Origin: Polyangiales bacterium
Lineage (GTDB): Bacteria > Myxococcota_A > Polyangia > Polyangiales > Houyiibacteriaceae
Assembly (NCBI GenBank): GCA_049670545.1
Contig: JBATTM010000416.1
Coordinates: 1,264 to 65,263 of the forward strand
Reading direction: 5' to 3'
Length of the DNA stretch: 64,000 nucleotides
Below are positions 6,535-16,533 of the stretch, in pieces; the first letter of the stretch is position 1, and the number at the start of each line of letters is the position of its first letter. A model generated the notes under the pieces. That model was given only the letters and a program-made list of their open reading frames with translations, was not told where the DNA came from and searched no databases. The translations under genes and the position numbers were made by a program.

Positions 6535-9174
6535 ATGCAATTTTCCGTCCGCCGAGAAGACCGCCGCAACCTTGCCGTAGGCTTTGTTGGGCTCCTGGCG
6601 ATCATGGTCGCGCACTCGGTGATGGAGACCGCGCGGGACGCGTTGTTTCTCGCCAGCCTGCCCGCCACGCAGCTTCCGTGGGCGTATCTGGCGATCGCCC
6701 TACTCGCGATTCTCGAACTGCGCGTGCACCAACGCGTCATGCTTTTCGTGCGCGACCGGCGCAAGCTCCTCGCGTTCACGCTCTTCGCCGGCTCAGCCAT
6801 CACACTCTCCTTTTGGGCGCTGATCGAAAAGCTCGGCCCGTGGGCGCCGTTCGGCTTCTACGTCTGGACCGGCCTCCTGATCACGATCGTGCTGATCCAA
6901 TATTGGCTGCTGCTCGACGACGCGGTCACGGTCACGCAAGCCAAGCGGATCTTCCCGGCCATCGCGGCTGGCGGGGTCACCGGGGCGATGCTCGGCTCGG
7001 CCCTGGCGGAGGTCTTGCTCCGATTCGCCCACCCGACGGGCCTCATCGTCATGGCAGCTCTCGTTCTGGCGGGGGCTGGCACGACGCCGTTGCTCTGGAA
7101 GACCGGTGGCGCCTCAACCCAAGACCGCGCGGCTGACGACCCGGAAGCGTCGGTCGGTTGGTTGCTGCGGGACAGCTACTTATCGCGGGTGTTGTGGGTG
7201 GTCCTGCTCGGCACCATCACGCTGACGATCGTCGACTACGTGTTCAAGAGTACAGTCGCGAACGAGATCCCGGCGGAGGGCTTGGCCGAGTTCTTCGCGC
7301 GGTTCTACCTGGGACTCAATTCGGTCGCGCTGATCATCCAGCTCGTGGGCGCGGGATGGCTTCTCCGGGCCTTTGGTGCGCATCGAAGCTCGGCCCTACT
7401 GCCTGTGCTCCTGTTCGGCGGCGCGATCGGCTTGGCGATCGGGCCCGTGTTGGTGTTTGCGGTCGCGCTCAAGGCGTTCGACGGAAGCCTTCGCCACACG
7501 CTCTATCGAAGTTCGGTCGAGGTGTTGTATCTGCCTCTCGATAGTCAGCGGCGCGAGCACGCCAAAGGAATCATCGAAGTGTTTGGCCACCGTGTGGGCC
7601 AAGCCCTCGCATCGGTGTTGATCCTGACAACCGTCGGGCTCGGCTTCACCGCATCGCAGTTCGGCATCGCCCTATTGGTTCCGATCGCGCTGTGGCTCGT
7701 CCTGATCATGGCGACGCGAAAGCAGTACGTCGAACAATTCCGCTCTCGCCTTCGTCAGGGAATGATCGACACCCGCATCGAAATGGAGGAGCTCGATCTG
7801 CACTCGCTCGAAGCGCTGCTCAATGCGCTCAACAGCGAGCAAGACGAAGAGGTCCTTGCAGCCGTCGACATCTTCAGCACGCACGGGCGCGAAGACTTGA
7901 TCCCGGTGCTGGTCTTGTACCACCCGGCCAAAGAGGTCCGGATGAGGTCCCTCGAAGCGTTCGCCGAGGCTTCCGATGACCGATTCGTCCCGGTGGCTCG
8001 CCGGATGCTGAGCGATGAGGACCCGGATATCCGGGCCGCAGCGTTGCGCGCATTGACCGCAGTAGACCCGAATAGGGCGCTCCTCGAGCAGAAGCTCGAC
8101 CTCGATGCATCGATCGTTCAGGCGACCGCGTTGGTGGGTCTCCTGTCGATCGATCCACAAGCGAGCACGAGCCGGATCGACGATTGGATCGCTGGCGGTA
8201 GCGCCCGGACGATGCATTCCTTGGCCCGAGCGATTCGCCACGAGCGCGGGACCATCTTCCACGAGCTCCTCGTCCGACTCATCGAAAGCGATGACGAGGA
8301 GGTGAAGCTCGAAACACTTCGCGCAATGGAACGCAACCCCGACCCTCGCTACCTTCCACACTTGCTGCCGTTGCTCGCGGACTCGGACCTCCGAGAGGCA
8401 ACCCGACAGGCGATGGTCGCGATTGGGCAAGACGCATTCGATTTTCTCGATCGAGCGCTCGGGGATCACGCTACCCCGCAGAAGGTTCGACGACGAGTTC
8501 CGCACACGATCATTCGCTTCGAGCCCAACCACGCCGCCAAGGTCCTCATGCGACATCTCGGGGGCGACCACGAAGGTGGGGTCCGTCTCAAGATCGTGCG
8601 GGCGCTCGTCCGTCTGCGCAGTACACACGGGTCTGTGCCACTCGACCCCGGCATGCTCGAAGAGCAGCTTCGTGGGTACTTGCTTCGCGTCGTCGAGATT
8701 CTAACTTGGCGCTCGGCGATCGAGAATCAGAGCGGAATCGAGAGTACCGATGGAGAGCTTCTCCGCACCGCGCTGGGGGACAAAGAAAGGGCATCACTCG
8801 AACGAGCGCTCTCGCTGATGGGGCTTCAACACCCCGAGGAGAATTTCGTGCTGGTGTGGCGTGGCCTTCGGAGTGACAACACGAGGCTCCGGGCGGCGAG
8901 CATCGAAGTACTCGAAGCCGTTCTCACCGGGCCGACCCGCGATGCAGTCCTCGCCCTGGTGGATGACGGCGAATCGGTGGAACGCCGAGCCAGGCTTGCC
9001 GGGGCGGCGCTCGGACGGCCAGCGCCTCGGCTCTCGTACGAGGCGGCGATCGAAGCGATGACGACAGATCAGAGCGAGGTGATTCGTGGAATCGCGACGC
9101 ACCATGCAAGGGAGATCGGGCAGAGACTGCATGCTCCGCACGGAGGAAGTCATGAGGAGGTCGGAGTTGCCTGA
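6535..9174 (+). CDS. Polytopic membrane (MFS / ATP:ADP-translocase-like) domain fused to HEAT-repeat domain
   Basis: 879 aa. The N-terminal ~400 aa have about 10-12 hydrophobic helices. The C-terminal ~450 aa carry repeated HEAT/PBS-lyase-like units (DPDIRAAALRAL, DSDLREATRQAM, NTRLRAASIEVL). Confidence 0.6.
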   Translation: MQFSVRREDRRNLAVGFVGLLAIMVAHSVMETARDALFLASLPATQLPWAYLAIALLAILELRVHQRVMLFVRDRRKLLAFTLFAGSAITLSFWALIEKLGPWAPFGFYVWTGLLITIVLIQYWLLLDDAVTVTQAKRIFPAIAAGGVTGAMLGSALAEVLLRFAHPTGLIVMAALVLAGAGTTPLLWKTGGASTQDRAADDPEASVGWLLRDSYLSRVLWVVLLGTITLTIVDYVFKSTVANEIPAEGLAEFFARFYLGLNSVALIIQLVGAGWLLRAFGAHRSSALLPVLLFGGAIGLAIGPVLVFAVALKAFDGSLRHTLYRSSVEVLYLPLDSQRREHAKGIIEVFGHRVGQALASVLILTTVGLGFTASQFGIALLVPIALWLVLIMATRKQYVEQFRSRLRQGMIDTRIEMEELDLHSLEALLNALNSEQDEEVLAAVDIFSTHGREDLIPVLVLYHPAKEVRMRSLEAFAEASDDRFVPVARRMLSDEDPDIRAAALRALTAVDPNRALLEQKLDLDASIVQATALVGLLSIDPQASTSRIDDWIAGGSARTMHSLARAIRHERGTIFHELLVRLIESDDEEVKLETLRAMERNPDPRYLPHLLPLLADSDLREATRQAMVAIGQDAFDFLDRALGDHATPQKVRRRVPHTIIRFEPNHAAKVLMRHLGGDHEGGVRLKIVRALVRLRSTHGSVPLDPGMLEEQLRGYLLRVVEILTWRSAIENQSGIESTDGELLRTALGDKERASLERALSLMGLQHPEENFVLVWRGLRSDNTRLRAASIEVLEAVLTGPTRDAVLALVDDGESVERRARLAGAALGRPAPRLSYEAAIEAMTTDQSEVIRGIATHHAREIGQRLHAPHGGSHEEVGVA

Positions 9175-10105
9175 ACCTGCGGTCACACCGTCCCGTGAGA
9201 TGGATCGGTTTCAACGATTTCTGTTCTTGAGGACGTTCCCGGGCATCGCAGAGCTTCCTCTGGAGATCGCGCAAGTAATCGCGGGGAACGCACGGCAGCG
9301 CTCGTACGAGAAGGGCGACTATCTGTGTCACCGAGGCACACCTGCGATGGAGGTGCAGTACGTCGTGTCGGGTCAGTGCGAGATCATTCGCAACGGAAGA
9401 GCCGTGCGATCGTTTGGACCGCGGAGCGTCGTTGGCGGAATCAGCGCGCTCGCGGAAGAAGAAGAAGGATACGATTGTGTCGCGCTTGGCGAGATGGTCA
9501 CATTGTCGCTGGCGATGGAGGATGCCCAAGAGATTTTCGAAGAGCACTTCGTGCTTCTCAAGCAGGTGTTGAGACGTACGAGTGCAGAAGTGATCGCGGC
9601 ACGTCGGCAGCTCGGCAAGCACGCTGGCTTCGGTCTCGTGGGGGAGGCGTTTGCGATTCCCGATCGCCCTTTTGATTTGGTCGAACGAATGGCGTTTCTA
9701 CGGAAGACGTTCTCATTCGGAGAGAGCGAGATCGACGCGATCGCCGATCTCGCGCGTGGCGTTCAAGAGTTGCACGTGCCCAAGGGCGAGGTGCTCTGGG
9801 AGATCGGCGATCGTTCGACCTATTTTCTGCTGCCGTTGCGGGGCGTGATCGACTGCCACGCCACGGAGCCGGAACAGCACTTTCGGTTGGGGCCCGGTGA
9901 TTCGGTCGGGTCGATCGACGCGGTCGCCGATGCGCGCAGGTGGTTTCGGGCCGAAGTTGCGGAGCCTCTGGTGGCGTTTCGAATCGACATCGACGTCCTG
10001 CTCGAAGTGCTCGAAGACCACTTCAGCATGGCGATGTCCTTGCTTCGCGGGATTGCGACGGGGATCTTGAATCTGTACGACCAGGAGTCCGAGCTGAAAT
10101 CTTAA
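9152..10105 (+). CDS. Tandem CAP-effector (cyclic-nucleotide-binding-like) domain protein
   Basis: Two beta-barrel cNMP-like domains (GDYLCHRGTPAMEVQYVVSGQCEII ... FGPRSVVGGISAL and GEVLWEIGDRSTYFLLPLRGVI ... LGPGDSVGSIDAV). The canonical R-[ST]-A phosphate-binding residues are not evident. ATG 9152 has a GGAGGA Shine-Dalgarno 5 nt upstream and overlaps the upstream gene by 23 nt. An alternative start lies at 9200. Confidence 0.55.
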   Translation: MRRSELPEPAVTPSREMDRFQRFLFLRTFPGIAELPLEIAQVIAGNARQRSYEKGDYLCHRGTPAMEVQYVVSGQCEIIRNGRAVRSFGPRSVVGGISALAEEEEGYDCVALGEMVTLSLAMEDAQEIFEEHFVLLKQVLRRTSAEVIAARRQLGKHAGFGLVGEAFAIPDRPFDLVERMAFLRKTFSFGESEIDAIADLARGVQELHVPKGEVLWEIGDRSTYFLLPLRGVIDCHATEPEQHFRLGPGDSVGSIDAVADARRWFRAEVAEPLVAFRIDIDVLLEVLEDHFSMAMSLLRGIATGILNLYDQESELKS

Positions 10106-10135: not shown

Positions 10136-10163
10136 TTGTCACTGCTCTTTTGTTCAGTATACT
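10136..10163 (+). promoter_or_regulatory. Sigma70-type promoter candidate for imuA-imuB-dnaE2 (TTGTCA-N16-TATACT)
   Basis: -35 TTGTCA at 10136-10141 and -10 TATACT at 10158-10163, each 5/6 to consensus with a 16-nt spacer, inside a locally AT-rich island. The imuA ATG is only 10 nt downstream of the -10. Confidence 0.5.
10142..10158 (+). promoter_or_regulatory. Candidate LexA (SOS) operator, Myxococcus-type
   Basis: CTGCTCTTTTGTTCAGT matches 14 of 17 positions of the M. xanthus LexA box CTRHAMRYBYGTTCAGS (consensus recalled from the literature), including the invariant GTTCAG. It fills the promoter spacer upstream of a cassette that is classically LexA-regulated. Confidence 0.45.
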
Positions 10164-10173
10164 GGGTGGTCCC

Positions 10174-10845
10174 ATGCCTTCTGGGACACACGAAGCCAAT
10201 GTGATCAAGCTCGAGACACCGCTCGACGCCCGCACCGAACCTTCACCCAGCCAACCTCCCACAGCACAACCGCTTTCGGCACTTCTGCCACGTGCGCGGT
10301 TGGTCGAGGTCTCGGGGCGCCACGCATGTGCACGTACCACTACGGCGGTGTCGTGTGTGATCCATGCGCAAGCGCGCGGTGAACTCGTCGCTTGGGTGCA
10401 GCCTCGTGATGGTGCGCTCTTCCCTCCTGATCTTGCGGCCGCGGGCGTCGATCTCGAAGCGTTCGTCGCCATTCACGTACCGCAACATGCAGGGCCGTTC
10501 GCATTGGTACGTACTGCCGAGTGGCTTGCCCGTTCTGGTGCGTTTGGTCTCACCATCATCGACCTCACCGATGCCATGCCGAAAGGCTCATCGGCCAATT
10601 GGCAGGGGCGGCTGCAAGGAGTGTTGCGCCAATACGACGGACGCATGCTCTTGCTTACATCCAATCAGCTCGAAGATGCATCTTCAGGTCCGCTCGTCGG
10701 GCTTCGCGTCGAGCCCCAACGGGGGCCACTTCTCGGCGATCGATTCGAAGTTCAGCCGCGGATCTTGAAAGACAAGATCGGCCTTGGCACCAGCCTTGCG
10801 ACGGCACAGCCAATCGCACCTTCAGGTTTGCAAGGTGCATCATGA
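10174..10845 (+). CDS. imuA: ImuA (SulA/RecA-like inducible mutagenesis protein)
   Basis: ARLVEVSGRHACARTTTAVSCVIHAQARGELVAWVQPRDGALFPPDLAAAGVDLEAFVAIHVP is typical of ImuA. It is first in an imuA-imuB-dnaE2 order. The TTG at 10150 lies inside the promoter, so ATG 10174 is preferred. Confidence 0.75.
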   Translation: MPSGTHEANVIKLETPLDARTEPSPSQPPTAQPLSALLPRARLVEVSGRHACARTTTAVSCVIHAQARGELVAWVQPRDGALFPPDLAAAGVDLEAFVAIHVPQHAGPFALVRTAEWLARSGAFGLTIIDLTDAMPKGSSANWQGRLQGVLRQYDGRMLLLTSNQLEDASSGPLVGLRVEPQRGPLLGDRFEVQPRILKDKIGLGTSLATAQPIAPSGLQGAS

Positions 10846-12320
10846 ATCGCGTGGCTTGCGTGCTCTTGCCCATGCTTCCGATGCAGATCTTGCTTCGGCA
10901 GAAGCCCCACTGGAGCCAAGCCCCGGTGGCCGTCGTCGATGACGAAGGTCCGCACGGCCGTGTCACACATCTCAACCCACTTGCGCGCAAGCTTCGTCTC
11001 CGCATCGGGATGCGCCAAAGCGTCGCGCGCGATCTGGTGCCCAATCTGCACACGGCCGTGGTTTCACCAGATCAAACAACGGCGATCACGGCTGAGCTCG
11101 TCGCTTCATTGCAAACCTTCTCCCCAAAGGTCGAGCCGATCGCACATTCCGGCGCGTTTCACGTGGATCCGGAGGGGCTTCGACGATTGTACGGCGGCTA
11201 TCGAAACTGGGCCACGTGCATTCATCGCTACTTGCGGGCGCGCCATTGGCGCAGTGCGGTCACCGTTGGTTTTCACCGATACCGTACGCTCGCCGTCGCG
11301 ATGTCGAACGCCACCGTCACAGTTCTACAAAGCCCTGAGCAAGAAACTGAACGCTCCAACAACACCCCACTCGGCGAGTTCGATCTTCCAGGTGATGTCT
11401 GTGAGAACCTGGCGGCATTGGGCATTGAAACTCTCGGTGATTTCTTGGTGCTTCCCTCAGGCGAACTTCACAGTCGTTTCGGCGAAGCGGCGAGCGCCCT
11501 TCACGATCGTTTCTCTGAAGGGCTACAGCTTCCCATCCAGCCTCACGCCTTCGAAGAGCCGGCGCGAATTTCGTTTCAAGTCGATCCGCCCGATGACGAC
11601 CAGCACCGTTTGTTGTTTGCCATCAAAGGCGCCCTTCATTCGCTCCTTCATCAGGTACGAGCTCGTGGTGAAGCTATCGAATCGCTCACGCTGTCGTTTC
11701 ATCTCGAGCGCGCACCGCTGCACATCGAGCGCGTCGGTCCTGCATCGCCTTCACTCGACTTGATGACGCTCCTCGAGCTGATTCGACTTCGCGTTGGAGA
11801 GATTGCGCTCGACGGGGCGGTCGAAGAAGTCGAGATCGATGCGGCCACCGTGCGCGCACATGCAGAACAACGCGCGCTTCCTGGGCACCAATCGGTTCTC
11901 GACATGGGCGCTGCACACCGTGCGCTCGCACGAATCCGAGCGGCCTATGGCGAGCAGTCGGTCACCAAGGCATCTCTGCGCGAAGCTCACCTTCCAGAGG
12001 CCTCGTTTGCGTGGGAACCCATTGACCGCACGTCCCTGCCAGCCAATGCATCTTCCGACAATCCAGCGATGATTCGCAGGGTTTTTGCGCGCCCGAGGCC
12101 CCTTCCGCCACGCAAACCCGCCGAGCCCGAGGCAGGGCCTTCGCTCTCGCAGAACCAGGCAATCGAACACCTGTATGGCCCCTATCGCGTCAGTGGCGGC
12201 TGGTGGAAGCGGCTCGTCGAGCGCGACTACTACTACGCCCAAACCGATCACGGCGACCTGCTCTGGCTCTTTTACGATCGCCCGCGCAAACGTTGGTTCC
12301 TTCACGGAGTCTTGGATTGA
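10842..12320 (+). CDS. imuB: ImuB (Y-family polymerase-like, catalytically inactive adaptor)
   Basis: ATG 10842 overlaps the imuA stop (ATGA). N-terminus MNRVACVLLPMLPMQILLRQ...APVAVVDDEG...VTHLNPLARKLRLRIGM resembles the ImuB/DinB-like fold. Its position between imuA and dnaE2 supports the call. Confidence 0.8.
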   Translation: MNRVACVLLPMLPMQILLRQKPHWSQAPVAVVDDEGPHGRVTHLNPLARKLRLRIGMRQSVARDLVPNLHTAVVSPDQTTAITAELVASLQTFSPKVEPIAHSGAFHVDPEGLRRLYGGYRNWATCIHRYLRARHWRSAVTVGFHRYRTLAVAMSNATVTVLQSPEQETERSNNTPLGEFDLPGDVCENLAALGIETLGDFLVLPSGELHSRFGEAASALHDRFSEGLQLPIQPHAFEEPARISFQVDPPDDDQHRLLFAIKGALHSLLHQVRARGEAIESLTLSFHLERAPLHIERVGPASPSLDLMTLLELIRLRVGEIALDGAVEEVEIDAATVRAHAEQRALPGHQSVLDMGAAHRALARIRAAYGEQSVTKASLREAHLPEASFAWEPIDRTSLPANASSDNPAMIRRVFARPRPLPPRKPAEPEAGPSLSQNQAIEHLYGPYRVSGGWWKRLVERDYYYAQTDHGDLLWLFYDRPRKRWFLHGVLD

Positions 12321-12326
12321 AGCACG

Positions 12327-15300
12327 ATGGGGGCGTACGTTCCGTTGTGGGTCAAGACGAACCACAGCTTTTTGGAGGGGGCGTCCTTCCCCGAAGAGCT
12401 GGTCGAGCATGCGCACGCGTTGGGGCTCCCCGCGATTGCCATCACCGATCGTGATGGTGTGTATGGGCTCGTACGGGCACACGTACGTGCCAGAGATCTA
12501 GGCATTCGCGTCATCACCGGAATGCAGCTGACTCTCGACGTCGATGGCGTGGCGCACCAAGTGGTTGCTCTCGCGAAAACTCAACGCGGATATGCCGAGT
12601 TGTGCCGTGCTCTATCCCTGGGACACGCTCGTTGCGTCAAGGGCGAAGCCCTCGTGCACGTCGCGGACATAACATCGATCGAAGACGTGTTCTTTCTATG
12701 CAACACGCCTGAAGCAATTCGTGCATTGCATCATGCAAGAGGGCCTTCTTCGTTGTTCGCGTTGTGTGCGCGCCACCTTCGCGATCACGAGCACGCGACG
12801 GAGCGCCACTTGCGTGAAGCGGCAAATGACCTCGACATCGGCTTCGTCGGGGGGAACGAAGTGCTCTATCACGATCGTGCACGCCGCCCGCTCCAAGACA
12901 TTCTGTCCTGCATTCGCAAGGGGAAAGTGCTTTCCGAGGCGGGTCATGCGATCCGAGGCAATGCCGAACACGACCTCAAGTCGGTCGACCAGATGACGCA
13001 GATGTTTTCGGACGACCCTGCTTGTTTACGACGCACACTCGACTTGGCCGAGCAATGCACGTTCAGCCTCGACGACATTCACTATCGTTACCCGGGTGAG
13101 CGCCTCCCTACGGGGCAAACCGAACAGAGTTGGCTCGAGTCGCTTGCCTATCAAGGCGCGCGCAATCGATACGATGGGTGCATTCCAACGAATGTTCGTG
13201 CGCAGATCGAGAGAGAACTCTTGATCATCGAGCGCCTCGACTACGGCGGCTACTTCCTCACCATGCACGAAATCGTCCAGTACTGTCGCGCCCATCACAT
13301 TCTGTGTCAGGGGCGTGGAAGTGCGGCCAACAGTGCTGTGTGTTTTTGCCTCGGGATCACGGCCATCGACCCAGTGCGCATGGACCTCTTGTTCGAACGC
13401 TTTCTGAGCGTCGAACGTGCTGAGCCACCGGACATCGATCTCGACATCGAGCACGACCGCCGAGAAGAAGTCATTCAACACGTGTACGACAAGTACGGTC
13501 GTCGTCATGCGGCGATGGTCGCCAACATCATTCGATATCGAATCCGTTCGGCGGTTCGCGACGTCGGCAAAGTGCTCGGGCTTCCACGTACCGATCTCGA
13601 GACGGCAACGCGGCTATTGCGGCATCGTGACGACGTTCTCAACCCCGAGTTGTTGCGAGAAGCCGGTCTCGACCAGGACTCCCCGGCCACTCATCACCTG
13701 TGGTCACTTGCGTCACAAATACTCGATTTTCCTAGGCATTTATCGATTCACCCAGGAGGTTTTCTGCTCGGTCACCGAGCGGTCGACGAGATCGTGCCCA
13801 TCGAACCCGCCACGATGGACAACCGCACCGTCATCCAATGGGACAAGTACGATGTTGAAAATCTCGCGTTGTTCAAGGTCGATCTGCTCGGGCTCGGTGC
13901 ATTGACATGCATTCATCATGCATTCGATCTGCTGCACGTACACAAGGGGCAGTCGATCGAGATGGCATCGGTACCCACTGAAGACCAAGCGACTTACGAC
14001 ATGGTCTCTGCGGGAGACACAGTCGGCGTGTTTCAGATCGAAAGCCGCGCACAGATGGCCATGCTTCCGCGCCTTCGTCCACGCACGTTCTACGATCTCG
14101 TCATCGAAGTCGCGATCGTTCGGCCAGGTCCGATTCAAGGAGACATGGTGCACCCGTATCTTCGTCGCCGAAAAGGTGAAGAGTCCGTCGAGTACCCTCA
14201 CCCGAAACTCGAACGGATTCTCAAGAAGACACTCGGCGTCCCGATCTTCCAAGAGCAGGTCATGAAACTCGCGGTCGAGGCGGCGGGGTACACGCCAGGT
14301 GAAGCTGATCAGCTGCGGCGTGACATGGCGGCGTGGCGAAAATCCGGACGCATCGAGAAGCATCGCACCCGCATGATTCCCCGCATGCTCGAACAAGGGA
14401 TCCCCGAAGAGTTCGCCGAGCGCGTTTTCTCTCAAATCCGAGGGTTTGGAGAGTACGGGTTCCCCGAAAGCCATGCAGCGTCGTTCGCTCTCCTCGCGTA
14501 CATCACAGCCTGGCTCAAATGCCACCATCACGAAGCATTCACCTGCGCCATCCTCAACGCCCAGCCAATGGGCTTCTACAGCCCCGCCACACTGGTCGAG
14601 GATGCCAAGCGCCACGGCGTCGAAGTGCTTCCCATCCACATCAACCAGAGTGCCTGGGACTGCACCCTCGAGCGGCGAGGAGGCACTAGCGCCAGCACTG
14701 ACGCTGGCACCGACACTGGCACCGACACTGGCACCGACACTGGCACCGACACTGACACTGACACTGACACTGACACTGGCACTGGCACTGACACTGACAC
14801 TGGCACTGGCACTGGCACTGACACTGACACTGGCACTGACACTGACACTGACACTGACACTGGCACTGGCACTGACACTGACACTGATCTCGCCGTGCGA
14901 ATGGGGTTGCGGTTTGTGAAGGGGTTGGGGCAGGTGGAGCGGGAGAAGATCGAGGGGGCGGGTACGACGTTTCCGAATCTGGCCACGTTCGTACGAGAGA
15001 CTCGGCTCTCACGAAGAGCGTTGCATGGGTTGGCCGAAGCCGGGGCGTTTGAATGCTTTGGTCTCAATCGACGAGATGCGATTTGGCAGGTGCGAAGCCT
15101 CGCTCGATTCACACGAGATTCACTCCCGCTCGAACCAGGGTCGAGCCAGATCTCATTCTCGTCGCTAGTCCACGACGACGAAGTGATCTGGGATTACCGC
15201 GCGAGCCATCACAGCACGCGCGGTCACCCGATGCGGGGGCTGCGAGGAGCCCTCGAGGCGCGCCACATCCCGAACGCCGAGAGTGTGCGGCATACGGAGC

Positions 15301-15587
15301 ATGGCAGGCAGGCAAGCTATGTGGGCATGGTCATCTGCCGACAACGCCCAGGAACCGCATCCGGCGTGACGTTCTTCACACTCGAAGATGAAACTGGATT
15401 CGTGAACGTGGTCGTGTGGAAGCACGTGTTTGACCAGTATGCCACCATCGCAAAGACCGCATCGCTTCTCGGGATTACCGGAGAGATCCAAAAAGCCGAC
15501 GGCGTGGTCCACCTGATCGCGAAGTCGTTATGGGTGCCCGAGCTTGCCGTCGCCGATCACCCGCGACAATCGCGTGACTTTCACTGA
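12327..15587 (+). CDS. dnaE2: Error-prone DNA polymerase III alpha-like DnaE2 (ImuC)
   Basis: 1086 aa. PHP N-terminus (VPLWVKTNHSFLEGASFPEELVEHAHALGLPAIAITDRDGVYG), polymerase core (GRGSAANSAVCFCLGIT, PDIDLDIEH, QIESRAQM) and an OB-fold C-terminus. It contains a ~68-aa TD/TG low-complexity insertion. Confidence 0.92.
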   Translation: MGAYVPLWVKTNHSFLEGASFPEELVEHAHALGLPAIAITDRDGVYGLVRAHVRARDLGIRVITGMQLTLDVDGVAHQVVALAKTQRGYAELCRALSLGHARCVKGEALVHVADITSIEDVFFLCNTPEAIRALHHARGPSSLFALCARHLRDHEHATERHLREAANDLDIGFVGGNEVLYHDRARRPLQDILSCIRKGKVLSEAGHAIRGNAEHDLKSVDQMTQMFSDDPACLRRTLDLAEQCTFSLDDIHYRYPGERLPTGQTEQSWLESLAYQGARNRYDGCIPTNVRAQIERELLIIERLDYGGYFLTMHEIVQYCRAHHILCQGRGSAANSAVCFCLGITAIDPVRMDLLFERFLSVERAEPPDIDLDIEHDRREEVIQHVYDKYGRRHAAMVANIIRYRIRSAVRDVGKVLGLPRTDLETATRLLRHRDDVLNPELLREAGLDQDSPATHHLWSLASQILDFPRHLSIHPGGFLLGHRAVDEIVPIEPATMDNRTVIQWDKYDVENLALFKVDLLGLGALTCIHHAFDLLHVHKGQSIEMASVPTEDQATYDMVSAGDTVGVFQIESRAQMAMLPRLRPRTFYDLVIEVAIVRPGPIQGDMVHPYLRRRKGEESVEYPHPKLERILKKTLGVPIFQEQVMKLAVEAAGYTPGEADQLRRDMAAWRKSGRIEKHRTRMIPRMLEQGIPEEFAERVFSQIRGFGEYGFPESHAASFALLAYITAWLKCHHHEAFTCAILNAQPMGFYSPATLVEDAKRHGVEVLPIHINQSAWDCTLERRGGTSASTDAGTDTGTDTGTDTGTDTDTDTDTDTGTGTDTDTGTGTGTDTDTGTDTDTDTDTGTGTDTDTDLAVRMGLRFVKGLGQVEREKIEGAGTTFPNLATFVRETRLSRRALHGLAEAGAFECFGLNRRDAIWQVRSLARFTRDSLPLEPGSSQISFSSLVHDDEVIWDYRASHHSTRGHPMRGLRGALEARHIPNAESVRHTEHGRQASYVGMVICRQRPGTASGVTFFTLEDETGFVNVVVWKHVFDQYATIAKTASLLGITGEIQKADGVVHLIAKSLWVPELAVADHPRQSRDFH
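14682..14888 (+). repeat. In-frame hexanucleotide tandem repeat (GACACT/GGCACT/GGCACC)n, about 34 units
   Basis: Read directly: ggcacc gacact ggcacc gacact ... gacact gacact ggcact ggcact ... It translates in the dnaE2 frame as GTSASTDAGTDTGTDTGTDTGTDTDTDTDTDTGTGTDTDT...TDTD. Confidence 0.95.
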
Positions 15588-16003
15588 CTTCCAAGAGCGA
15601 TCTTCACGAGCTCGATCGCCCAGTACGCTTCGATTGCAAGCTGAACGGAGAAGAACGTGACACGAACCGTGATCGCGAGGTTACTCGTCGAGAGCAAGTG
15701 CGTGAGGCTCTGCCCGATGCGCGCCAAGAGCACCCACAACGCAAGCGCATCCGTCACCTCGGAGTGTCCGGTGACGATCGCCGTCAACACGATCACACCG
15801 AAGATCGGGAGGTTCTCGACGCAGTTGGCGTGCGCACGGCAAAGCCGCATGTGAAAGGGGGATACATCCGAGCCGTCAGGCTTGAACTCGGCACTTGCCC
15901 GCCGATTGATGAGGAAAATCCATGAGCGAAGTGTGATCGTCGTCAACACCAACAAGAGGGTCCACCCGGCGAACCCGAGGAGAGCCAACACTGAATTCGA
16001 CAT
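15581..16003 (-). CDS. MAPEG-family membrane protein
   Basis: 140 aa with 4 predicted TM helices. The motif RLCRAHANCVENLPIFGVIVL resembles the MAPEG (microsomal GST-like) signature. It converges on dnaE2 with a 7-nt overlap. Confidence 0.6.
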   Translation of the reverse strand: MSNSVLALLGFAGWTLLLVLTTITLRSWIFLINRRASAEFKPDGSDVSPFHMRLCRAHANCVENLPIFGVIVLTAIVTGHSEVTDALALWVLLARIGQSLTHLLSTSNLAITVRVTFFSVQLAIEAYWAIELVKIALGSQ

Positions 16004-16029
16004 CCTGCCTCCCGGTCAGACGACCTCGC

Positions 16030-16533
16030 TCACTCGAGCTGCATCTCTGGTTCTTCGCGGCGCGGATGAAGATCCTCGCGCCCAATCGTACGTACACACG
16101 CATTCCACCTCAGAATCGCGTCATCGACCCCGGGTGGCTTCAAGCCATCCGCTCGCTCGTAGTGGACCATCGCCTCGTGAAGCCCTTCGTAGGCGAACGT
16201 GCGCGCGATGCCACCTTGGGTGAGGTGGGCTCTGCCTTGGCGCTCGGCCACCAACCCGGTGTAGTACTCGCGCTCGTACTCACTCGGCAGCTTCGCGACC
16301 TGCTCGAGGGCGCGCCGCGCAGCGTGCGATCCGCCCCCGCCGCTGAACTGATCGGTGAGTGCGAGGATCAACGTGATTCGCGCGCGCGCGTTTCCATCGT
16401 CGATCGCAAGCACATCGAGTGAAATGCTCTCTGCTTGCTCCGGGTCGTTCAAGAGACGGTAGTGCTCGGCTCTCTCGACCGCACGCGCGATCGCGTCCTG
16501 TGAGATGGTCTTCAGTGCGAAGCGTTCTGCCAT
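16030..16533 (-). CDS. Hypothetical helical protein following sdhB
   Basis: 167-aa ORF starting 12 nt after the sdhB stop, with a codon pattern consistent with coding. No family recognised. Confidence 0.45.
   Translation of the reverse strand: MAERFALKTISQDAIARAVERAEHYRLLNDPEQAESISLDVLAIDDGNARARITLILALTDQFSGGGGSHAARRALEQVAKLPSEYEREYYTGLVAERQGRAHLTQGGIARTFAYEGLHEAMVHYERADGLKPPGVDDAILRWNACVRTIGREDLHPRREEPEMQLE

Follow-up and report, generated by a model that had tools for sequence, protein, structure and literature searches.

The question raised by this locus is how a long run of a six-nucleotide unit came to lie inside the coding sequence of a DNA polymerase, and whether it does anything there. 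The locus is part of a 64,000-nucleotide (nt) stretch of contig JBATTM010000416.1 from the Polyangiales bacterium assembly GCA_049670545.1; this 64-kilobase (kb) stretch is hereafter called the window, and coordinates are positions in it. The gene is dnaE2, which encodes the error-prone polymerase of an imuA-imuB-dnaE2 cassette. At 14682-14888 on the forward strand, 207 nt or 34.5 hexanucleotide units run in frame within dnaE2. We conclude that the tract is probably a coding microsatellite, formed by slippage-driven expansion in a permissive loop, polymorphic in length and most likely a near-neutral passenger rather than a regulated device.

Tandem Repeats Finder reports one array here, at 14696-14887, with a period of 6, 32 copies, 86% matches, no insertions or deletions (indels) and a score of 265. 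It is by far the strongest repeat of the window, in which all other arrays score 66 or less. Degenerate units at the 5' end lead into a perfect core of GRCACY units, which is closed by a final half unit (Table 1). The first 48 nt of the core (14706-14885) consist of GGCACCGACACT x4, and downstream of this opening the order of the unit variants is aperiodic. A pattern of three successive GRCACY units matched the window 28 times, every time within the tract, and gave 0 matches in each of 100 dinucleotide-preserving shuffles. With 30 perfect units and 34.5 in total, the tract has the many head-to-tail short units, far above chance, of a microsatellite or coding variable-number tandem repeat (VNTR). 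An earlier preliminary description of this DNA had placed about 34 units at this position, encoding a Thr-Asp/Thr-Gly tract of about 68 amino acids (aa). Both figures hold: the translated tract runs from T787 to D854 (68 aa; composition T32 D20 G12 S2 A2) between ...WDCTLERRGG and LAVRMGLRFVKGLG..., exactly the flanks that had been quoted. ACT accounts for 28 of its 32 Thr codons despite being the rarest Thr codon in the genes of the window (7.5%), which indicates that a DNA unit was amplified here and that neither the codons nor a particular peptide were selected for.

Several other readings of the tract were tried and rejected. A structured RNA element in the coding sequence was dismissed because the folding energy of the tract region is not significant (z-score -1.59; 12 of 200 shuffles fold equally well or better). 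The low-complexity open reading frames (ORFs) in other frames, namely (AL/TL)n at 14446-14919 on the plus strand and (SV/PV)n at 14576-15112 and (CQ)n at 14686-15012 on the minus strand, are all present as previously described and, as had been proposed, are artefacts: they are by-products of the repeat within a strongly supported gene and not genes themselves. A mobile element or an intein was likewise discarded, as the tract is a pure hexamer repeat without element-like content (an ORF of its own, terminal repeats or splicing motifs). The NCBIfam matches that overlap the tract are weak, low-complexity hits only (TafF, MXAN_5453 family), far under their cut-offs.

Profile matches identify the host gene as a bona fide DnaE2, in agreement with the preliminary description, and gene linkage places it in an ImuA-ImuB-DnaE2 cassette. 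The protein scores 1303.4 bits against the NCBIfam model NF004225 ('error-prone DNA polymerase'; cut-off 939), with a match that spans it end to end (residues 3-1086 on profile positions 5-1047 of 1047), while the model of the replicative DnaE, NF004226, reaches 634, under its cut-off of 1002. The Pfam domains follow in the order PHP (9-100), DNA_pol3_alpha (269-522), finger (526-691), HHH_6 (855-917) and OB (1005-1069), and the protein ends at residue 1086. This is the DnaE2 arrangement of PHP, Pol3 alpha, fingers, double helix-hairpin-helix or (HhH)2, and OB, without a C-terminal tau-binding domain. The palm motifs are PDIDLDIE at residue 368 and KVDLLGLG at residue 517, and their acidic residues D369, D371 and D519 are invariant across 64 homologs. 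Directly upstream lie both linked partners of the cassette, a RecA-like imuA and a Y-family imuB.

The tract interrupts a small and recognizable element of the fold. The Pfam domain HHH_6 is broken at about profile position 20/21, so that its match starts only past the tract (855-917 on profile 21-89), and the first helix-hairpin-helix signature, KGLG, starts 10 residues past the tract end. When the sequence is aligned to Thermus aquaticus Pol III alpha, the tract is flanked by the equivalents of residues 880 and 888. P0044, whose loop is the shortest among the homologs (turn 'EG', ...WDCTLEEGRLRMGL...), aligns gap-free to T. aquaticus Pol III alpha FDFKVVGEEILFGL, hairpin residues 876-889, which points to a tight beta-hairpin with a two-residue turn as the basal state. 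The tract in the window replaces this 2-residue turn, and the earlier view of an insertion into a variable loop, as opposed to a native domain, is thereby supported. An AlphaFold2 model of residues 690-960 (271 aa), on which the structural reading rests, has a strand at 780-783, the tract as coil with a predicted local distance difference test score (pLDDT) of 41-47, a second strand at 855-858 and the (HhH)2 helices at a pLDDT of about 90. This domain model matches the Pol III alpha structures of E. coli, T. aquaticus and M. tuberculosis with a probability of 1.00; structure searches found no solved DnaE2 structure, only DnaE1-type Pol III alpha. In the models the tract appears as a disordered loop on well-modelled flanks, extruding from the hairpin tip, and it would presumably be exposed to solvent.

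The relatives used for comparison are the 120 best DnaE2 homologs, which come from uncultured marine or sediment Myxococcota and have BLASTP identities of 75-86% (about 80-85% with the loop masked). The differences in total length among them (1015-1082 aa) all map to the loop site, where the loop measures 2-69 aa. A subset carries runs of Thr-Asp and Thr-Gly (TD/TG), also with Ala-Asp and Ala-Gly (AD/AG), in loops of 5-25 aa, and in the loci L081-L085 units of GACACT, GGCACT and GACGCT stand at the codon equivalent to the window tract. Between P0002 and P0005, 1027 of 1028 aligned residues match and the difference is a 4-aa gap in the tract; at the DNA level, 9795 nt of the two loci align at 99.745% identity; there are 13 mismatches, and the single gap is a 12-nt indel within the tract. 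Sequence clusters at 90% identity contain loop alleles of 11/19 aa (with the near-identical P0005 at 15), 15/17/19 aa and 7/11 aa. Whole-unit indels of 6, 12 and 24 nt separate near-identical strains, and the observed length differences are all multiples of 6 nt. The strain hypervariability suggested earlier is therefore real in the relatives, where whole units differ in copy number between close genomes as in a VNTR, a comparison that covers these relatives and not the window's own species. The window protein had no exact match in a look-up of the public collection, and a genome scan returned, as the best among the matches listed, metagenome-assembled genomes (MAGs) that are 79-81% identical.

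In a distance tree built with the loop masked, the TD-bearing sequences fall in two clades. The tract of the window (68 aa) is the longest TD/TG run seen, nearly three times the maximum TD/TG loop of 25 aa in about 175 homologs. Several cluster members of P0002 and P0007 (P0124, P0127, P0132 and P0135) are 228-aa C-terminal fragments on small contigs that start exactly at MGLRYVKG, just past the loop, which suggests that metagenome assemblies or gene calls tend to break at the repeat.

Across the DnaE2 family the same site was measured as a spacer, the distance from WDCT to VRMG, which is about 76 aa in the window by our own count. The spacer is 5-68 aa long in 79 species-representative genomes of many phyla, at most 12 aa in more than half of them and at least 27 aa in 18 of the 79. 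Among 115 measurable cluster representatives (50% identity) it has a median of 16 aa and a range of 3-270 aa, with 10 representatives at 60 aa or more. The inserts at the loop share nothing with one another, being Arg-rich (Vicinamibacterales), Pro/Ser-rich, apparently random or repetitive, and even their charges are opposite, Arg-rich in Vicinamibacterales versus acidic in the window. The insertion site is permissive: to either side of it the polymerase fold stays as it was, and within the family nearly any sequence is tolerated there. The proposal of a lineage-specific insertion consequently stands for the hexamer repeat and its extreme expansion but fails for the site, since long, often low-complexity or repetitive loops (3-270 aa) are common there in homologs.

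Other repetitive loops were encountered at this hairpin. An Acidobacteriota MAG (L032, 6548-6633) has an independent in-frame tandem repeat in its DnaE2 hairpin loop, 9 nt x 9.4, that encodes DGQ-like repeats, and the loops of P0198, P0300 and P0260, from unrelated phyla, contain peptide repeats including SVKGE x3, a unit of about 13 aa x3 and an (E-S/E-F)n run. In many relatives a loop of the 'SPVDDAKRRLY' type takes the place of the TD tract (L210; L212, L213 and L001 6550-6609), and in L210 (3615-3736) the dnaE2 loop holds 39 nt x 3.1 at 97% identity. The DNA of the 'SPVDDAKRRLY' loop is a unit of about 39 nt with two short hairpins, GGGGC-GAA-GCCCC and CGATGC-GAA-GCATCG (GCGAAGC mini-hairpin type), in which stem changes between loci preserve pairing (GGCGC/GCGTCC, GACGAC/GTCGTC). 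This unit has the appearance of a small palindromic element of DNA that stays in frame, and not of a selected peptide. Foreign DNA has also entered the repeat itself. At L206 5329-5532 about 129 nt of foreign, non-repeat DNA lie in frame inside (GACACT)n, with GACACTGACACTG on either side, and at L207 5329-5574 there is a foreign insert of about 200 nt (69 aa), in frame and with tract remnants at either end. Out-of-frame versions of such foreign inserts occur in the cluster members P0150 and P0151 and leave DnaE2 truncated.

The history that fits these observations would begin with an ancestral seed of two or three GACACT units encoding the beta-hairpin turn that directly precedes the (HhH)2 motif; in the lineage of the window, replication slippage would have brought the seed to about 34 units. 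As the unit is 6 nt long, the reading frame would be kept at every gain or loss, each of which would alter only the length of a Thr/Asp/Gly loop that is disordered and, with 20 Asp in 68 aa, strongly acidic, and the tract would persist as a length-polymorphic, near-neutral passenger in a permissive loop. Short orthologous seeds, whole-unit indels in near-identical strains and a site that accepts everything are together best explained by slipped-strand expansion in a permissive hairpin turn, and it is from them that we infer slippage as the mechanism and near-neutrality as the outcome. The site is without conserved length or charge, which argues against a general function. Literature searches, including surveys of C-family polymerases (PMC3919608, PMC12926913), yielded no description of a hypervariable hairpin or of a dnaE2 microsatellite.

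A number of points weigh against this account. The nearest relatives of the window sequence, P0003, P0004 and P0008 (84-85% identical), have unrelated, non-repeat loops, so that the passage from seed to expansion is reconstructed from more distant TD-bearing clades. The figure of about 34 copies is known from one assembly, and length variation is known from relatives and not from the species of the window. Near-neutrality is argued from the diversity of the loops. About 20 negative charges sit 10 residues from a DNA-binding HhH motif. Published AlphaFold modelling has set the (HhH)2/beta-binding domain of DnaE2 against the ImuB thumb (PMC12926913), and given these charges the tract could plausibly influence activity. 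Modelled at full length with AlphaFold2, the protein gives a poor result (mean pLDDT 43.8, with the same local pattern around the tract), too poor for global use.

These points lead to the alternative in which the loop is functional and works as a tunable acidic tether. Beside (HhH)2, as a DNA mimic or a steric spacer, it would modulate duplex-DNA binding or docking of the ImuB thumb, and slippage would yield strains of heritably different mutasome activity. Its strength lies in the 20 Asp within 68 aa, in a tract end only 10 residues before KGLG and in the predicted contact of the (HhH)2/beta-binding domain with the ImuB thumb (AlphaFold modelling, PMC12926913); moreover, TD/TG tracts persist in two clades of relatives and length alleles segregate among close strains. 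We nevertheless consider it unlikely, because neither length nor charge nor sequence is conserved among the loops at the site (other DnaE2 proteins have Arg-rich, Pro-rich or random loops, or one of 2 aa), the repeat is missing in the nearest relatives, and the use of the rarest Thr codon points to a process at the DNA level. Quite unlikely, too, is that the repeat is real and its length an artefact, the copy number of about 34 having been inflated or collapsed by the assembler. An aperiodic order of unit variants past 48 nt is unlike a simple assembly-graph loop, the tract is in frame with its conserved flanks intact inside a contiguous 64-kb window, and independent assemblies of relatives have an equivalent repeat at the equivalent codon; the suspicion arises as a low-complexity tract of 207 nt exceeds typical short reads, gene fragments of relatives (228 aa, on small contigs) start exactly at MGLRYVKG, and in about 175 homologs even the longest TD/TG loop is exceeded nearly threefold by the window tract.

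The hairpin tip could be a selected 'evolvability' site, repeatedly seeded in marine Myxococcota with slippage-prone DNA (the 6-nt TD/TG repeat and the 39-nt hairpin minisatellite), and the way in which the mutasome engages DNA or ImuB would then vary between strains, heritably and reversibly. Such a site would in effect be a contingency locus that preserves the frame and tunes the damage-induced mutation rate; we regard it as very improbable. Myxococcota encode many Ser/Thr kinases and FHA-domain proteins, and the tract might be an array for post-translational modification or docking, with Thr phosphorylated by Ser/Thr kinases or O-glycosylated and thereby recruiting partners or controlling stability. 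The composition (T32 D20 G12) and the fit of each Thr of a TDTD run to the pattern pT-x-x-D accord with such an array, as does that general stock of kinases and FHA-domain proteins; yet the array is not conserved, most relatives having 0-3 such Thr or unrelated loops, and the conserved neighbourhood contains no kinase or FHA gene linked to the cassette, which makes the idea a most improbable one. Hardly credible, finally, is a phase-variable on/off contingency switch for the mutasome. A long simple-sequence repeat within a coding region is what such a switch would need, and out-of-frame, truncated DnaE2 variants do exist in relatives (P0150, P0151), but these truncations come from a different, foreign insert and not from the hexamer repeat, whole-unit slippage of a 6-nt unit never shifts the frame, and the observed differences are all multiples of 6 nt. 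A phase-variable contingency locus was accordingly rejected, the unit being a multiple of three. Slippage-driven expansion of a near-neutral coding microsatellite is retained as the preferred reading.

The same hexamer occurs outside dnaE2. A metagenome scan for loci with at least 5 GRCACY units returned at least 120 loci (L086-L205); among the matches listed none was a dnaE2, and the longest run had 21 units. The hexamer lies in unrelated metagenomic ORFs, in which TD/TG is the most frequent reading (32 of the 120 loci listed), and TD/TG linkers thus seem to be a recurrent low-complexity motif outside dnaE2 too.

The features of the cassette and of the tract are collected in Table 1.

Table 1. 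Features of the imuA-imuB-dnaE2 cassette and of the dnaE2 repeat tract, with positions in the window
Feature	Position	Strand	Basis
Promoter-like TTGTCA-N16-TATACT enclosing the palindrome ACTG-N10-CAGT (10141-10158), upstream of imuA	10136-10163	+	Motif, conservation
imuA, RecA-like protein, 223 aa	10174-10845	+	RecA match (Pfam/NCBIfam)
imuB, Y-family (IMS) homolog, 492 aa; ATG overlaps the imuA stop codon (ATGA)	10842-12320	+	IMS match
dnaE2, error-prone C-family DNA polymerase, 1086 aa, palm motifs intact	12327-15587	+	NCBIfam, Pfam, motifs
Beta-strand T780-R783, predicted first hairpin arm	14664-14675	+	AlphaFold2 models (local pLDDT about 75-90 in the domain model)
Degenerate 5' units GGCACT AGCGCC AGCACT GACGCT, encoding G-T-S-A-S-T-D-A	14682-14705	+	Read in frame
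Perfect core, 30 consecutive GRCACY units (18 GACACT, 8 GGCACT, 4 GGCACC)	14706-14885	+	In-frame reading; Tandem Repeats Finder
Final half unit GAT (Asp854), closing the 68-aa tract T787-D854	14886-14888	+	In-frame reading
Beta-strand L855-R858, predicted second hairpin arm	14889-14900	+	AlphaFold2 models
KGLG (residues 865-868), first helix-hairpin-helix signature of the (HhH)2 / 'beta-binding' domain	14919-14930	+	Pfam HHH_6, models

The gene order imuA-imuB-dnaE2 is also found in L081, L084, L206 and L207, and the length of imuB (492 aa) is equal in relatives. The palindrome ACTG-N10-CAGT, set between a -35-like and a -10-like hexamer, has a single occurrence in the window and is nearly identical upstream of imuA in the same four loci; judged by this conservation, it is a plausible candidate for a DNA-damage operator of the cassette, LexA-type or other. 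In Myxococcus xanthus, dnaE2 has been reported to depend on the regulator DdiA rather than on LexA (PMC12288472). The third-position GC (guanine plus cytosine) fraction of imuA, imuB and dnaE2 is 0.58, 0.64 and 0.67, against about 0.70-0.83 for most other long ORFs of the window, which would fit either weak adaptation of the codons or a separate history of the cassette. The neighbourhood common to the relatives comprises a cyclic nucleotide monophosphate (cNMP)-binding protein, imuA, imuB, dnaE2, a MAPEG protein, a 167-aa protein and fumarate reductase genes. In the window the conserved flanks of the cassette are 9086-10105 and 15581-16533, with counterparts in L081, L084, L206 and L207. The protein encoded upstream has two cNMP-binding domains; the downstream genes, which lie on the opposite strand, encode a MAPEG-family membrane protein and the 167-aa protein of unknown family and are followed in relatives by the fumarate reductase genes.

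The tract is a mildly surprising, well-documented feature for which the evidence favours an ordinary, neutral reading. Even if neutral, it points to a place in DnaE2 that is very permissive, a hairpin tip accepting 2-270 residues that could be used for tagging or engineering mutasome polymerases, offers a strain-typing marker for an uncultured marine Myxococcota group and accounts for the breaks of metagenome assemblies and gene calls at this point of dnaE2. Should the length of the tract affect binding of DNA or ImuB, the tract would provide the first case of an error-prone polymerase tuned by a simple-sequence repeat, and such tuning would bear on the evolution of mutation rates themselves.

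Compared with known systems, the protein agrees with the DnaE2 (ImuC) of the Caulobacter, Mycobacterium and Myxococcus mutasomes (PMC10421592, PMC5285347, PMC12926913) in family score, domain order, palm motifs and imuA-imuB linkage, and it differs from them in its loop, as neither a hypervariable hairpin loop nor a microsatellite is described in those papers. M. xanthus is reported to have an operon of imuA and imuB without dnaE2 (PMC12288472), whereas in the window all three genes follow one another behind a single conserved palindrome that resembles an operator. With the simple-sequence contingency loci of host-adapted bacteria the tract shares slippage in a long simple-sequence repeat and differences between strains; those loci, however, have units of 1, 2, 4, 5 or 7 nt (or act through promoter spacing) and switch on and off, while the repeat in dnaE2 preserves the frame and alters loop length only. 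The Thr-Gly repeat of the Drosophila period gene (PMC4109182) is similar in its hexanucleotide-encoded Thr-Gly runs and in a natural length polymorphism that arises from slippage. It belongs to a eukaryotic clock protein whose length variants have reported phenotypic effects under selection, whereas the present repeat is mixed TD/TG, bacterial and known here from sequence alone. The Ser-Asp repeats of the staphylococcal Clf/Sdr proteins (PMC3324548) resemble it in several respects: their tandem DNA repeats stand in frame, encode a run of X-Asp dipeptides, vary in copy number between strains without loss of the frame and give a disordered acidic product. They are built of 18-nt units and serve as stalks in secreted, wall-anchored adhesins, whereas the repeat of the window is a 6-nt microsatellite in a cytoplasmic DNA polymerase, set at the tip of a hairpin within a folded domain.

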